Shown in pieces: positions 3,950-22,921 of a stretch of 64,000 nt of DNA. Numbering within the stretch: the first letter of the stretch is position 1; each line of letters starts with the position of its first letter. Origin of the DNA: a virus (taxonomy: Duplodnaviria > Heunggongvirae > Uroviricota > Caudoviricetes); the IMG/VR virus record IMGVR_UViG_3300037455_000543, positions 315,136 through 379,135 of that record. One strand, written 5' to 3'. Below the pieces are notes generated by a model. The model worked only from the letters and a program-made list of their open reading frames with translations, did no database searches and was not told the origin of the DNA. The translations under genes were made by a program, and so were the position numbers.

Positions 3950-4171
3950 TTATCTCATGTTAAAGGCATCCAGTAATCCGGAGTAGTCCTCGTCAATCTG
4001 TGCCTTCTTAACAGATCTTCTATACTGTGGTGGTTTATAATAACTCTTTTTCTTTTTCGGATGTCTCTGAGTTAATATATATCTGGTTCTTGGCTGTCTG
4101 CGTGCAGAGAGGTTGATTACAGGTTCATCCAGGAGTTCGTCAAGTATTTCAAATATGTCAAATATATTCAT
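3950..4171 (-). CDS. Hypothetical protein
   Basis: ORF, probable start MNIFDIFE. Confidence 0.55.
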   Translation of the reverse strand: MNIFDIFEILDELLDEPVINLSARRQPRTRYILTQRHPKKKKSYYKPPQYRRSVKKAQIDEDYSGLLDAFNMR

Positions 4172-4245
4172 ATTATTATATATGAAAAACCCATGGAGAA
4201 TTAACTCCATGGGAAACAAATGACCAACAAAAGGACAAATTATGG

Positions 4246-4536
4246 TCAAATCTTACTCAATGTCGCTTGTATCTCTGTATCTGCATATAGTTCCCAGAAA
4301 TCTGGTTTATCCTGGTTTGCAAGAAGATCCAGCAACAACATATCCCACATGGGATTAACGGGATTATCAATCATCTCATTGATGACGATATCAATCTCAT
4401 GTTCAGAATAAAGCTTTACAAGATTCTTGTATGCGTTATCAGTCGCAATGACTGGAACATTACGATACTTAAGAGAATTTGCGACAATATTCTTTAAACG
4501 GTTAATCTCGTTATAATAGATGTCATTCGTAATCAT
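4246..4536 (-). CDS. Hypothetical protein
   Basis: ORF directly after promoter. Confidence 0.65.
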   Translation of the reverse strand: MITNDIYYNEINRLKNIVANSLKYRNVPVIATDNAYKNLVKLYSEHEIDIVINEMIDNPVNPMWDMLLLDLLANQDKPDFWELYADTEIQATLSKI

Positions 4537-4601
4537 AATCTTAATATAATAAAATGCAGGGTCAATGTAAACCCTACATATTCTATTTAGCCACCTTCAG
4601 T

Positions 4602-4787
4602 TTACTTAACAGAAAGAACCAACTTTAATACTTGAAGTTCGGCAATTCTCGCTTTCAAATCTCTGACTCGCATCTCGTAGACGAACCTCAGAGATTCCAG
4701 AGCGGAGTTCTTAGGTAAAACACCAGAGTTAATGATCTTGATTGCGTTTTCGAATTTTTCTTTCTTTTCAATGAGTTCTTTAATCAT
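4602..4787 (-). CDS. Small coiled-coil protein
   Basis: ORF, GGAG SD. Confidence 0.65.
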   Translation of the reverse strand: MIKELIEKKEKFENAIKIINSGVLPKNSALESLRFVYEMRVRDLKARIAELQVLKLVLSVK

Positions 4788-4851
4788 TGAGTATCTCCAT
4801 TAGTTAAGGTTTATACTATATTATCGTATTTGGAGATAAAAATGTAAAGTA

Positions 4852-5007
4852 TTATAATATATCTGTCAATATCATTATACCTAGAATAAGGAATACGACA
4901 AACATTGCAGCTACAATACTACCTGCTGACGTTCCATAAATGAATGCTTCTGCATTTCCAGCATTCTGGGCAGCTGTGATCACCATCGCGGTCTGTAAGT
5001 CATGCAT
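4852..5007 (-). CDS. Small membrane protein, 51 aa
   Basis: Manual translation MHDLQTAM...IVAAMFVVFLILGIMIL; AAGGAGG SD. Confidence 0.6.
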   Translation of the reverse strand: MHDLQTAMVITAAQNAGNAEAFIYGTSAGSIVAAMFVVFLILGIMILTDIL

Positions 5008-5079
5008 AATCGCCTCCTTGTTTTATTTATCTATTGAGGGTCCTCTAAAAATAACAAAACCCTGTGACCATCATCACAG

Positions 5080-5162
5080 GGTTCCGACATTGTTTCCAAC
5101 CCGAGGTCAATATCGGCAAACCTCGCCGGGCTGGTCAAAAAGGAGCCACCAGACACCGGAAT
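5080..5162 (-). ncRNA. Candidate small four-way-junction RNA after tRNA-Thr
   Basis: TTCCGG/TCGGAA closing stem, CTGGT/ACCAG, CGAGGT/ACCTCG, GTTG-GAAA-CAAT; then terminator CCCTGTGA/TCACAGGG-TTTT. Confidence 0.4.
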
Positions 5163-5173
5163 TCAAAAATGGA

Positions 5174-5289
5174 TGGTAGCAATGGCAGGACTCGAACCTA
5201 CAACCCGCTGGTTACAAGCCAAAAATAGGAACAGTCAATGCATTACTGCGGACAGTAAGTAAGCTGCTCTACCATTGAGCTACATTGCA
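5174..5289 (-). tRNA. tRNA-Thr(UGU) with a 41-nt insertion in the anticodon stem
   Basis: Acceptor GCAATG/CATTGC, D arm GCTC/GAGC, T arm GTAGG-TTCGAGT-CCTGC, encoded CCA; removing 5221-5261 restores GCTGG-CTTGTAA-CCAGC. Confidence 0.8.
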
Positions 5290-5366
5290 CCATCTGCAAA
5301 AGTAGGCGGGGTGTATGAACCGTAAAAATAATTGTTATTAATAGGAACACCCTGTGCCTTAATTTC

Positions 5367-5567
5367 TTAGTCACACTCTCGGTTGATGATATACTTCTGC
5401 TTGATTTCATCAGGAGCATCAATCAGTTCAACCTTGATGTCACCAACTGCTTCCTTCTGAACATCAGCCAGCATGATTTCCTTTGCGGCATCATACTCTT
5501 CATCTGTTGCACTATCAGGCAATGCGAATTGGCGCTTTACAGTGTAAGTTACTTCAAACTTCTTCAT
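5367..5567 (-). CDS. Hypothetical protein
   Basis: ORF, AAGGAG SD. Confidence 0.75.
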   Translation of the reverse strand: MKKFEVTYTVKRQFALPDSATDEEYDAAKEIMLADVQKEAVGDIKVELIDAPDEIKQKYIINRECD

Positions 5568-5654
5568 TATTTATTCTCCTTTCGTTGTTGATTGTATTGT
5601 TAATATAATAAATTATTCTACTCTTGTAAACCCTCAATGAGGGATTATTTTTTA

Positions 5655-5810
5655 TCAGTCATCCTCATCATCTTCTACCGGTTCCTCGTCATCGTAGACG
5701 GAATCATATCCGCATTCAGGACATTCCCATCCTTCAACCAACTGGTGATCGATATGCGGATCATCAGTAATCATTCTTTTGAGCTTTGCATCACAGTTAG
5801 GACATCTCAT
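5655..5810 (-). CDS. Zinc-ribbon protein, 51 aa
   Basis: Manual translation MRCPNC...WECPECGY; AAGGAG SD. Confidence 0.75.
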   Translation of the reverse strand: MRCPNCDAKLKRMITDDPHIDHQLVEGWECPECGYDSVYDDEEPVEDDEDD

Positions 5811-5822
5811 AGTTAATTCTCC

Positions 5823-6044
5823 TTAAAGGTTACCCATCCTGTTTTTCTGTAATGCGCTTAAAACAATTGCAGGCATTACTGCAAAATCTGTAATGTCAAC
5901 CTTCGTTTGCTGTGTAATGTCTTCAACACTATATGTTCCGGTTTCGGCAATAAAATCACCTACCTTACAAGCATCAGTTTCTGAAAGTTGTGTTTTAGAC
6001 GTTATTTCAACAGGAATAAATACCATTTTTGTAAATTCAGCCAT
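5823..6044 (-). CDS. Small protein, paralogue of 11044-11268 and 55533-55754
   Basis: MAEFTKMVFIPVEIT motif. Confidence 0.75.
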   Translation of the reverse strand: MAEFTKMVFIPVEITSKTQLSETDACKVGDFIAETGTYSVEDITQQTKVDITDFAVMPAIVLSALQKNRMGNL

Positions 6045-6280
6045 AATTAACTCCTTATTGGTTATGTTCTTAATATAGAAAAAGATGTGGCTATTGTAAA
6101 CCACATCCTTATCTTATATTCTGTTCAGTTATCTTATGGAAGTTCTATATGGAATACGAAATAACTGCTTCCCGGTTTATTCGTGATGTTAACAATTCTT
6201 CCGTCATATTCATTATACACGAACTGCAACATATCGAGTTCGTCTTTGGTAAGGTTAATCGAATATACCATTATTACTCC

Positions 6281-6697
6281 TTATAACTTATACATTGCAC
6301 AGATTTTAGTGAACATTTCAAATGCGGATTCTGCTTCATGAGGTTCATAAATGAAATACTTGGTACAGCCGACAGATTCTTCTTCGTTTTCGTATTCCAA
6401 GGAAATAACATATCCGTCCTTCAGAACTTCGTAACCGTTACCATTGTTTTTACTGTCCGACCACCGCATCTGTCTCAGCATACCCTTTTCAAGGAGTTCA
6501 AGAGTAACAAAGACATTGGAAAAATGGTTTGTCTTAACGGTTTTACCATGCTTAAATTCCGTGGTCGGAATATTGATTTTACCTTCAAAGTGATTCAACT
6601 TAATGGTATCGATATGGTCAAAGAAATCTTGTTCGTTTTCAATAAAAGTCTTTTTCTCAGAAACATATTCATCGAGTCGCATACTGTATTGAGCCAT
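6281..6697 (-). CDS. Hypothetical protein
   Basis: ORF, SD, promoter. Confidence 0.75.
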   Translation of the reverse strand: MAQYSMRLDEYVSEKKTFIENEQDFFDHIDTIKLNHFEGKINIPTTEFKHGKTVKTNHFSNVFVTLELLEKGMLRQMRWSDSKNNGNGYEVLKDGYVISLEYENEEESVGCTKYFIYEPHEAESAFEMFTKICAMYKL

Positions 6698-6783
6698 GGT
6701 TTAATCTCCTTATTGGTTATGTTTATAATATAGAAAAAGATGTGGCTATTGTAAGCCACATCCTTAAAGTTATTTTGCTTTAG

Positions 6784-7062
6784 TCAGCTATTCATTCGTT
6801 TCCGGAATTCCTTGAAGTCTTCAGATACCGGCATGTATTCACCATGAATATAGACAGTCTTATCGTCATCACCGTAATAGAATAACACGTCTTCTTGATA
6901 CATATCAGACGAAGTGACTCTTGCTTTGATGGTATTATTCTTATTCCACTGTTCACTTAACCAGTAGATATACATATCCGGCAAACGACGTTCAATAAGT
7001 TTTTTAGTCTTATTGACATCATGTTTTTCAGACCAGGGTTTGCGACATTCGTAATACGGCAT
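6784..7062 (-). CDS. Hypothetical protein
   Basis: ORF, GGAGG SD. Confidence 0.75.
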   Translation of the reverse strand: MPYYECRKPWSEKHDVNKTKKLIERRLPDMYIYWLSEQWNKNNTIKARVTSSDMYQEDVLFYYGDDDKTVYIHGEYMPVSEDFKEFRKRMNS

Positions 7063-7174
7063 AATTGCCTCCTTTAATTAAGGGTTATTACGTTATCATC
7101 GCTCTCCATATTATAATATAGAAAAAGATGTAGCCATTGTAAGCTACATCCTTAAGGTTGTTTTGTTTCAGTTA

Positions 7175-7594
7175 TCAATAATCATCGTGATAGGAACAGA
7201 CGAACCCCATGTGGTCGTATGCACGTTCTATTGCGTTCAACTTGTCACTTTCTTTCACAATGATCTTCTTTTGAAGTTTATCTTCCAGATAATAAAGTTC
7301 TTTACCTTTTGCTCCGATAAACAATCCTGGACGTCTTACCCAGATAGTAATTTTGTTCCATCCACGTCTTACCTTGACAATTCCACTGTCCTTCATGTAC
7401 GCATATGCCTTTTCCGGCGACCCGAAATGATTGATCATATTATAATACATGGAGATAAGAATTGTCTCTGCTGGAAAGATAAAGCGATAAACCGCTCGGA
7501 AAAAGAGATAGGTATAGACTTTGATGTCATCCCAGAGAGTGATCTTGATTCCGAGACGTTCAGACCGTTCTTTTCTTGATTCGCTTCCAAACAT
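7175..7594 (-). CDS. KH-domain (type II, S3-like) RNA-binding protein
   Basis: ITIWVRRPGLFIGAKGKEL with GxxG loop. Confidence 0.65.
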   Translation of the reverse strand: MFGSESRKERSERLGIKITLWDDIKVYTYLFFRAVYRFIFPAETILISMYYNMINHFGSPEKAYAYMKDSGIVKVRRGWNKITIWVRRPGLFIGAKGKELYYLEDKLQKKIIVKESDKLNAIERAYDHMGFVCSYHDDY

Positions 7595-7612
7595 ATTAGA
7601 CTCCTGTTTGAA

Positions 7613-8164
7613 CTATTTTGTTGAAATATTATAATTACCAGACCATGCTTGAAAATTACTTCTATCACCTGATGATGGTATAATGGATAATATAGTTCCA
7701 GTGCATTCAATAGAATCCATACCTCCATGCCAAACACCATCTATTGAATTTGAACTTTCTTGCTGTTCATAAGCATTAAAATAAAAATAAACTGTTTTAG
7801 TTGTATTTGTTTCAGATTTACCATTAACCATACATTTTATTGTATAGTTTATTGCTACTGACATGTTATATTCAGTATTATTTTTCATTACAAGGTGGGC
7901 ATAGTTTGAAGATTTTGTTATACCAACATATACTAAATCTGTCATGAAGTAATGTTTTTTAATTTCTGTTTTATTAGAAGATGATGATATCAACCAATTA
8001 TTATAATAAGATGATGAACTTAAAATATCACAGCCGAGCAACATATATTTTTCACAATCTGATTGATTTTCATAATTTTCAATATCAGATTCAGTTACAC
8101 TTGTTCCTGTATCAACAGCGCATCCATAAATAAATAGCATTAAACAAATAATTAAATATTTCAT
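7613..8164 (-). CDS. Putative lipoprotein
   Basis: MKYLIICLMLFIYG-C lipobox-like signal. Confidence 0.65.
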   Translation of the reverse strand: MKYLIICLMLFIYGCAVDTGTSVTESDIENYENQSDCEKYMLLGCDILSSSSYYNNWLISSSSNKTEIKKHYFMTDLVYVGITKSSNYAHLVMKNNTEYNMSVAINYTIKCMVNGKSETNTTKTVYFYFNAYEQQESSNSIDGVWHGGMDSIECTGTILSIIPSSGDRSNFQAWSGNYNISTK

Positions 8165-8249
8165 TATAACTCCTTTATTTTTATATAATATAGAAAAAGA
8201 TGACATTATTATAAATGTCATCTTTTAATTTTTTTCTATTCAGTTAACA

Positions 8250-22438: not shown

Positions 22439-22921
22439 AAAAAAGGACAGAGCAGATCTATCCATTGAACTTTAGATGTTCGGAGATGTCCATGTTAGGG
22501 TGATCGTCTTAAAGTCAGGTTCTTTGAGTTCTATCCTACACCAGCGAGTTAAACATGGACCGGAGACATCAAGCCTATCCAGGAACACTGAATAGACTGA
22601 CAGGTATGGACCATCAACCTCTGTGGGATTTACTTATAGGCTTACGATGCAGGCATTCCGGCTCACCGACTACATCCTATAATACCGATGCGGCTATCTA
22701 GGTTCTTTGTTATCAGAACCCTCTGCGGTAATATACGCTAGACTGTTTCTTGTAATACCACGGATTAGGTATAACTCGGCCGTCCGAGCCAAGAAACTTA
22801 CTGAAAGGACTTACCTCATCCCCAGCGGCTTACCCTCTACCGACAGCATCATTGAGTTGAGTTTCGCTCCGAGGAATAAGACTTACTATGTAATTGCGTT
22901 TCTTAGGGAACCTAAGTTCAT
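22439..22921 (-). ncRNA. ~480-nt structured ncRNA with its own promoter and terminator
   Basis: End-pairing TGAACTT/AAGTTCA, many internal helices, G-U pairs favour minus strand; terminator at 22439-22463. Confidence 0.7.

Follow-up and report, generated by a model that had tools for sequence, protein, structure and literature searches.

In Salmonella, the rsr-yrlBA-rtcBA operon encodes Ro60 (Rsr) with the Y RNAs YrlA and YrlB, near RtcB (Chen et al., 2014; PMC4201824), and the system has also been noted for jumbo phages (PMC7824862). A further point of reference is provided by the Lak megaphages, whose tRNA introns were termed ‘enigmatic’, and were reported without a mechanism (Devoto et al., 2019; PMC6784885). 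In the present study we describe a tRNA-Thr(UGU) gene, hereafter T1, that is interrupted by a 41-nt insert within a 64,000-nt stretch of phage DNA. This stretch, referred to throughout as the window, comprises bases 315136–379135 of a phage genome that is complete at 424,163 bp, has direct terminal repeats and contains 35 % G+C; coordinates are those of the window unless given as genome positions. The insert, a feature far beyond chance, represents one copy of a two-helix RNA that is conserved and that we term the handle, and is neither a one-off nor part of a decayed gene; very probably, it is the cognate handle module of a protein with a TerD domain. We conclude that the element is genuine and conserved and belongs to an undescribed RNA–protein system, and a full-text literature search returned no description of the handle motif, the protein family or such a tRNA interruption. 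The resemblance to the Lak introns lies in tRNA genes of huge gut or rumen phages that are split by short conserved inserts; in contrast to the handle, one Lak insert is itself tRNA-shaped, no partner protein was proposed and the motif TTCCTAT is absent from the examined part of the supplementary Lak intron listing (PMC6784885).

A tRNA-Thr gene with a 41-nt insert between positions 29 and 30

T1 spans 116 nt on the minus strand and carries 41 extra bases between tRNA positions 29 and 30. The Rfam tRNA model RF00005 matches 5177–5289 (minus strand) with 44.1 bits against a gathering score of 29, skipping the insert; every arm is present in this alignment, the 52 unaligned nucleotides all fall within the anticodon arm and pair 1–72 is flagged as non-canonical, corresponding to a U1–U72 mismatch. 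From its 5′ end, the gene comprises a 7-bp acceptor stem, the D arm, GCU, the 41 additional bases, GG-CUUGUAA-CC-AGC, the variable loop, the T arm and ACCA. In its default mode ARAGORN misses T1, and a call appears only when introns are allowed, where it is wrongly parsed. Upon deletion of 5221–5261, the remaining 75 nt are called by the same program as an intronless tRNA-Thr(UGU) with the anticodon arm GCUGG-CUUGUAA-CCAGC and an encoded CCA. As running ARAGORN on all possible deletions was too permissive to set junctions, a strict parser was used instead. The parts of the gene are as follows.

5174–5289, minus strand: tagged tRNA-Thr(UGU) T1 (RF00005; ARAGORN Thr-UGU after removal of 5221–5261)
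5262–5289, minus strand: tRNA 5′ part, positions 1–29, with acceptor 5′ strand, D arm and anticodon-stem GCU (Rfam alignment, strict parse)
5221–5261, minus strand: 41-nt handle module (covariance model R1, 53.1 bits; covariation on 18 copies; minimum free energy fold equal to the family fold)
5261–5257, minus strand: handle linker UACUU
5256–5251, minus strand: 5′ strand of handle helix P_b, ACUGUC
5250, minus strand: handle C
5249–5247, minus strand: handle helix P_a, GCA
5246–5243, minus strand: handle loop GUAA
5242–5240, minus strand: handle UGC
5239–5237, minus strand: handle AUU
5236–5231, minus strand: 3′ strand of P_b, GACUGU
5230–5225, minus strand: conserved UCCUAU of the handle
5224–5221, minus strand: handle linker UUUU
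5174–5220, minus strand: tRNA 3′ part, positions 30–76, with GG-CUUGUAA-CC, AGC, variable loop, T arm, acceptor 3′ strand and ACCA (Rfam alignment, strict parse, ARAGORN)

An earlier note, made from the sequence alone, had described a genuine tRNA-Thr(UGU) with an insert at 29/30 whose arms and CCA were intact save for U1–U72, and had predicted that deletion of 5221–5261 would restore a GCTGG/CCAGC anticodon stem; both statements are borne out by the Rfam and ARAGORN results. We also agree with its view that 41 nt do not suffice for a group I or II intron, as a group I ribozyme core takes at least 200 nt (P1–P9) and an Rfam scan of window 5000–5500 matched only tRNA at E ≤ 1, with no intron family. 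Likewise, an archaeal-type bulge–helix–bulge has two 3-nt bulges with a 4-bp helix between them where exon and intron meet, and inspection revealed no 4-bp helix between the junctions, in keeping with its statement that no such motif is present. The hairpin proposed there for the insert (TTACTG-TCCG-CAGTAA) has to be replaced, as the minimum free energy fold of the insert alone coincides with the conserved family fold, in which ACUGUC pairs with GACUGU (with one U–U mismatch) and GCA with UGC, the latter capped by GUAA, with an asymmetric internal loop between the two helices. The linkers UACUU and UCCUAUUUUU lie opposite each other at one end of helix P_b. A megablast search of window 4000–9000 against the phage collection returned no match.

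With regard to the gene as a whole, full-length T1 reaches −34.5 kcal/mol in its minimum free energy fold, which differs from the cloverleaf (−21.8 kcal/mol with the handle) and pairs the 3′ acceptor strand and CCA with the D arm region; the handle-free form also does not fold as a cloverleaf. Together with the U1–U72 mismatch, this non-cloverleaf fold might reflect an alternative conformer.

Structure and covariation of the handle RNA

The inserts of T1 and of two further tRNA genes in this genome (T2 and T3, see below) share two boxes, box B, (W)U-ACnnnn-C-GC, and box A, GC-AYA-nnnnGU-UCCUAU, which combine to the consensus UU-ACnnnn-C-GCn...nGC-AYA-nnnnGU-UCCUAU. The boxes pair to form helices P_b (ACnnnn/nnnnGU) and P_a (GCn/nGC), separated by an asymmetric internal loop in which C faces AYA, and P_a is capped by GNRA, UUCG or triloops. 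Among 18 tRNA-embedded copies, 90.7 % of the cells are paired compared with 73 % in shuffles, and 30 cells are changed on both sides, a value that none of 500 shuffles reached; moreover, the pairing signal disappears when the register is slid. When box A was defined by sequence, 103 of 165 instances had a fully complementary box B within ≤ 130 nt, whilst permuted helices gave 14.8 (maximum 23), and the outer P_a pairs were formed in 91 of 101 cases versus 24.8 in the control. In all, 37 helix sequence variants are in use. A U immediately precedes the helix (position −1) in each of 48 units with the permuted order box A–cargo–box B (A-X-B), and CC is invariant two bases past the helix. The distance from junction to handle varies from 4 to 8 nt on the 5′ side and from 7 to 13 nt on the 3′ side. 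Apart from tRNA, no family in Rfam covers the handles.

Several other explanations for the motif were rejected. A promoter or DNA-site reading of GTTCCTAT (a palindrome, or a sigma-54-like spacing) was set aside in view of the covariation between box A and a remote box B and of the strict strand specificity of the element, and a 13/13 match of GTTCCTAT to an FLP recognition arm was dropped on the same grounds. DNA hairpin elements of the IS200/IS605, REP-like or integron attC-like kinds do not apply either, given that the permutations are not mutual reverse complements and that pairing spans cargos of ≤ 97 nt. Finally, hammerhead, hairpin, twister and pistol ribozyme cores are absent by eye and gave no Rfam hit.

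Further handle copies in the phage genome

The earlier note had pointed out that the decamer TGTTCCTATT at 5233–5224 recurs exactly at 5349–5340, and this repeat proved meaningful; its second copy lies within a free-standing handle directly upstream of T1. This permuted unit consists of AGGC-ACA-GGGUGU-UCCUAU, an AU-rich cargo of 26 nt and U-ACACCC-C-GCCU, and its minimum free energy fold is identical to the descriptor structure (−15.4 kcal/mol, z = −2.5). Downstream of T1, a terminator-like hairpin closes the unit of handle hairpin and tagged tRNA.

5304–5359, minus strand: permuted free-standing A-X-B handle unit, directly upstream of T1 (descriptor search, 6/6 and 4/4 pairs)
5045–5086, minus strand: intrinsic terminator-like hairpin (14 pairs, at 5086–5055) with U tract

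Two additional phage tRNAs contain inserts of ∼40 nt: T2 (Pro; genome 414887–415001) and T3 (genome 420006–420117), the latter being, by strict parse, a Glu-UUC with a 39-nt insert, likewise at 29/30. Once the inserts are deleted, T1, T2 and T3 are all ordinary tRNAs according to ARAGORN, and each is redundant with a plain isoacceptor in the same genome. Covariance model R1 identifies exactly three strong copies in the phage genome and, in each of 13 further records, between one and four matches. Eight further copies occur in the permuted A-X-B order, all of them within tRNA clusters; in all, 11 handles reside in tRNA clusters of this phage and none at its own gene for the partner protein described below. 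At genome 414783–414857, ARAGORN reports a ‘tRNA-Leu(CAA)’ that is in fact a CCA-ending tRNA-like RNA located exactly between handle boxes A and B, in which a 6-bp stem with a GCAA cap takes the place of the anticodon loop. At four other loci (L007, L012, L017 and L047), homologues show covarying stems with GCAA, UUAU or GAAA loops.

Cargos between the handle halves

In every case it is the UU/UCCUAU end of the handle that faces the cargo, which is attached through the linkers (N3–4)UU and UCCUAU(N1–4). The cargos of 151 distinct A-X-B units are mostly 20–39 nt long, and among the short ones there is an excess of anticodon-loop-like hairpins, in which the second of seven loop nucleotides is U and the sixth a purine (44 of 130 versus 18.9 in shuffles, maximum 27), including Asn-, Tyr-, Lys-, Ser- and Thr-like loop sequences. 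Whole tRNA-like cargos have a tetraloop in place of the anticodon loop, a CCA end, a 4-nt leader after UCCUAU and a trailer of 5–6 nt to box B. In a third type the cargo is circularly permuted: ARAGORN finds no tRNA in these sequences as written, and after rotation it detects tRNAs of 70–78 nt with the re-joined handle site at nt 29–33 and the acceptor stem closed by a loop of 4–9 nt. The following examples are missed by gene finders.

L203:3229–3323: circularly permuted tRNA-like cargo between handle halves
L250:3545–3630: circularly permuted tRNA-like cargo between handle halves
L250:3668–3755: circularly permuted tRNA-like cargo between handle halves

The junction seen in T1 is also present in these permuted tRNAs and is therefore a recurrent design in both connectivities; the intron-type and the permuted forms use one attachment site.

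Distribution in viruses and bacteria

A pattern scan of viral contigs identified 47 loci with ∼30 true copies, mostly inside tRNAs, on unrelated-looking contigs of 4–501 kb. Comparison of the insertion site across relatives, which the earlier note had proposed as a check, showed that T1-like genes in seven other records all retain the insert, whilst their anticodon loops differ (UGU, UAU, UCC, AUU and AUC); T3-like bodies carry the anticodons UUC, CUC, UCC and AUC. After handle removal, nine hand-parsed 29/30 copies with T1-like or T3-like bodies display a 5-bp stem and the loop Y-U-NNN-A-A, and pairs 30–31/39–40 covary among them. Handle removal elsewhere also restores plausible Asn, Gly, Pro and Lys loops. 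At one locus (L004) the handle stands in place of the D arm. A search for insert-free orthologues yielded only generic Lys/Asn/Thr-type tRNAs for T1 and none for T3.

In bacteria, a genome scan with a helix-pairing filter revealed the same hairpin in tRNA-like genes at 22 Chryseobacterium loci and one Tenacibaculum locus. The Chryseobacterium arm without its handle has a 7-bp stem and an ACCA-type loop rather than an anticodon loop, with covariation from UC..GA to CU..GG. The suggestion that T1 is a recent pseudogene is rejected: numerous phages and bacteria keep both the module and the interrupted tRNA bodies, and compensatory changes are seen in the handle, in acceptor stems and in pairs 30–31/39–40. 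The other two suggestions of the earlier note, a protein-spliced mini-intron and a tRNA decoy, are still candidate explanations, so that its interpretation is supported in part.

A TerD-domain partner protein and its linkage to RtcB

In several phages, A-X-B units precede ORFs that start similarly and encode a product of ∼620 aa without a Pfam or PHROG match. Relatives of this protein numbered 211 in all, from which 80 viral loci were reached; handle units are present on the same strand at 58 of these 80, mostly stacked just upstream of the gene, and on the opposite strand at none. The homologue in the present phage is a 671-aa ORF outside the window (genome 19548–21563; E = 1.3e-34 and 5.1e-29 over two segments). 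As a whole the family comprises 1,375 representative clusters, 879 of them at E ≤ 1e-30, and five members had no Pfam, NCBIfam or PHROG match. A structural model built on an 87-sequence alignment (pLDDT 95.2, pTM 0.93; an earlier model from 10 sequences was poor, with pLDDT 64) predicts a helical N-terminal domain of ∼370 residues followed by a C-terminal TerD fold (Z = 10.1; Foldseek probability 1.0). Fold searches retrieved no convincing structural relative of the N-terminal domain, which contains near-invariant His, Arg, Lys, Asn and Glu residues across the family, and Ro60 was not among the matches listed. TROVE had no match anywhere in the phage genome.

The phage encodes RtcB (PF01139; genome 127380–128444; 184.5 bits) together with Rnl1- and Rnl2-type ligases; thus, of the ligase or endonuclease that the earlier note had proposed to look for, the former exists in three types, whilst EndA (PF01974) had no match in the complete phage genome, to which this search was confined and in which positive controls were detected. 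The protein and RtcB are both encoded in this genome and in all four of the other motif-bearing viral records that are ≥ 90 % complete. In Chryseobacterium the components are adjacent on the chromosome, in the order divergent WYL/WCX regulator, RtcB, handle-split tRNA-like gene, two or three A-X-B units and partner protein; the latter has 584 aa and 35 % identity to the phage protein (E = 1e-86).

L068:2770–7937: Chryseobacterium chromosomal module, adjoining cobalamin genes (cobT/cobS/cobC-like); likewise at L070, L072, L080, L125 and L134

The RtcB of this module is 471 aa in length, with a partial Pfam match, and the handle-split tRNA-like gene has an NCC triplet and a U discriminator in every case.

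Other features of the window and genome

The phage genome contains ∼52 tRNA matches, clustered near both ends and at 320–330 kb. Within the window, tRNAs Ile-UAU, Met, Lys-UUU, Gln-UUG, Arg-UCU and Leu-UAA are encoded at 10226–10671 and 14886–14971 (both minus strand). The Gln-UUG gene, at 88 nt, is long for a tRNA-Gln, and odd lengths occur genome-wide, with several ‘Leu’ tRNAs of 74 nt and Asn, Cys and Ile tRNAs of 83–89 nt. Adjoining the tRNA cluster is an ORF of 626 aa (8250–10130, minus strand) with no Pfam or PHROG match; short ..SHW / ..HW.. motifs recur in its BLAST output, suggesting an internal repeat. This ORF was considered as the partner protein and dismissed, as the two are unrelated. 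A match to the Rfam cow-rumen-2 RNA (RF02947) lies at 22621–22727 (minus strand; 71.6 bits versus a gathering score of 66), consistent with a phage from the rumen or gut. The phage tmRNA is found at genome ∼123310–123663 (RF00023, 139.5 bits), and a ‘tRNA-Leu with a 612-nt intron’, reported by ARAGORN when introns are allowed, is in fact this tmRNA gene.

Handle retention and its alternatives

The fold of the RNA, where it occurs, its association with the protein gene, the RtcB/WYL synteny in bacteria and the kinds of cargo are established by the results above; we infer that the TerD-domain protein binds the handle, that the handle is retained and that the complex has a biological role. The handle would stay in the RNA and tether the tRNA, or its anticodon arm, to the protein; the resulting particle would work in the manner of Ro60 with tRNA-like Y RNAs, and may serve RtcB-linked tRNA damage control or counter-defence. 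By analogy, we see about an even chance that such a Ro60/Y-RNA-like particle has arisen from unrelated parts, with T1 tethered to the protein via its retained handle. Retention fits better than splicing because units are arrayed before the protein gene, the handle replaces the D arm at L004, the Chryseobacterium arm is not an anticodon arm and the linkers are variable; indeed, with junction distances that vary, linkers are to be expected rather than sites cut by a ruler. Furthermore, the A34 anticodons (AUU and AUC) and the choice of displayed loops suggest, as an idea only, a link to anticodon nucleases. Weighing against retention is the fact that handle removal restores textbook anticodon arms, as an intron predicts. 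In addition, T1 retains free acceptor ends and an encoded CCA, and the CCA of whole tRNA-like cargos is located exactly 5–6 nt before box B, suggesting release by processing. RtcB, moreover, is the tRNA-splicing ligase of Archaea and animals, whilst the partner protein shows no similarity to Ro60/TROVE and its RNA binding is only putative.

The main rival reading is a protein-dependent intron, in which the 600-aa protein or a recruited partner would cut both linkers as an endonuclease and RtcB (or Rnl1/Rnl2) would join nt 29 to nt 30 to yield a functional tRNA-Thr. The handle would then play the part of the archaeal bulge–helix–bulge, and the same machinery would circularize permuted precursors and release handle-flanked RNAs. 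We regard this as possible but doubtful; and it is with equal reserve that we entertain its corollary, namely that bacteria and phages own a protein-dependent pathway of tRNA splicing and permutation and that T1 is a true intron-containing tRNA-Thr gene. Canonical tRNAs are obtained upon handle removal, and all three gene designs of bulge–helix–bulge systems have counterparts here, in the form of introns at non-canonical sites, permuted tRNA genes and RNAs flanked by a paired signal; intron, permuted and flanked designs along with RtcB characterize such systems in Archaea and the red alga Cyanidioschyzon. For the joining step, RtcB is a chromosomal neighbour in Chryseobacterium, no complete motif-bearing phage genome lacks it, and the present phage has Rnl1- and Rnl2-type ligases as well. 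The protein that would have to cut, however, has no recognizable nuclease fold, although the near-invariant residues of its new N-terminal domain count in favour of this reading. Where the assignment is unambiguous, and in CCA-ending cargos too, the 5′ junction lies an almost constant 5–6 nt ahead of the helix, but the 3′ distance of 7–13 nt is not fixed. Arrays of two to six units with tiny cargos before the protein gene make little sense for introns, the ‘spliced’ product in Chryseobacterium and at L004 is no decoding tRNA, the search for insert-free orthologues gave none, and the tagged tRNAs are redundant with plain isoacceptors in the phage genome.

Three further explanations carry little weight. 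The handle could act as an RNase P guide-like signal, with P_b and the U-CC tail mimicking an acceptor stem with N73-C74-C75, so that host RNase P would cut 5′ of ACnnnn; such a cut would separate tRNA-cluster transcripts and would split T1. Minihelices and external guide duplexes are among the substrates of RNase P, the U that invariably precedes the helix would be the preferred −1 base, the CC follows the helix at an invariant distance, and units lie between tRNA-cluster genes and 5–6 nt after CCA ends. We nevertheless judge this improbable: the AC/GU pairs, the internal loop of C against AYA and the UAU after CC would not be needed, the tie to the protein gene or RtcB is left unexplained and a single cut cannot restore T1. 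Still less probable is a cis-acting operator of translation or stability through which the protein controls its own mRNA, with the tRNA copies as functionless by-products. In favour of an operator, the leader of the protein gene holds stacked handles and the ribosome-binding site lies 10–35 nt after the last box B, yet the tRNA-associated copies are conserved in distant genomes with specific tRNA-derived cargos, and this phage keeps its 11 handles in tRNA clusters and none at its own protein gene. The least probable explanation that we considered is a mobile DNA mini-element, or an inactivated tRNA gene, in which a short palindrome was inserted and dead copies were left behind. Several copies per genome of a short, hairpin-like module that begins near TTAC would be in line with such an element; against this stand the module's strict strand specificity relative to neighbouring genes, the pairing of its halves across cargos of up to 97 nt, which is a constraint at the RNA level, and the covarying stems and anticodon-loop signatures kept by the interrupted tRNAs. 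Neither empty sites nor a transposase link were seen.

If the handle is retained, as we favour, this would be a second Ro60/Y-RNA-like particle made of unrelated parts, with ∼1,400 protein clusters in phages and bacteria, in which tRNAs or anticodon arms are displayed on a protein beside RNA-repair genes; it would likely matter in the conflict of phages with tRNA-cutting host defences. If it is excised instead, bacteria and phages would have protein-dependent tRNA splicing, and bacterial RtcB would gain a natural substrate. Handle-bearing genes are missed or mislabelled by standard tRNA finders, and the handle offers a simple search key for the whole system.

Comparison with known systems

As in the Ro60/Y RNA system, a gene for a large protein has its own small structured RNAs on either side or beside it in the same orientation, each with a conserved bulged stem; the variable module is often a tRNA mimic, there is a genomic link to RtcB, and both bacteria and phages are involved. 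The permuted handle cargos resemble YrlA in their closed acceptor stem and in an anticodon stem that leads into a (putative) protein-binding stem, and the synteny of the Chryseobacterium module parallels the rsr-yrlBA-rtcBA operon (PMC4201824; PMC7824862). The parts themselves differ. Unlike Ro60, the handle partner protein has neither a TROVE nor a vWA domain and instead combines a new helical domain with TerD; unlike the conserved stem of Y RNAs, the handle is unrelated to GNCGAAN0–1G / GGUCCGA and has no Rfam family, and it can in addition interrupt tRNAs that are complete in all other respects and end in a free CCA. We know of no Y RNA that occurs inside a complete CCA-ending tRNA.

Introns of tRNA genes provide the other comparison. 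The protein-spliced introns of Archaea and Eukarya (EndA/TSEN, RtcB) are likewise short inserts that lie in the anticodon loop or at non-canonical sites such as 29/30 and leave an intact tRNA once removed, and bulge–helix–bulge systems also present intron-type, permuted (Cyanidioschyzon merolae) and flanked forms of one paired signal in association with RtcB. In contrast to these systems, there is no bulge–helix–bulge here and no EndA homologue in the phage genome, the handle is a sequence-conserved, polar two-helix module, the putative cut sites are not at fixed distances, and the setting is one of bacteria and phages, in which splicing is putative. Group I introns in the anticodon loops of bacterial and phage tRNAs resemble the handle in interrupting the anticodon arm of a bacterial-type tRNA; they are, however, self-splicing and of at least 200 nt, with a P1–P9 core, versus a 41-nt insert with no Rfam intron match. 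What is new here is the placement of a handle inside a complete, CCA-ending tRNA at 29/30, and it is the attachment site shared by the intron-type and permuted forms that keeps the splicing reading alive beside the likeness to Ro60 and its Y RNAs.
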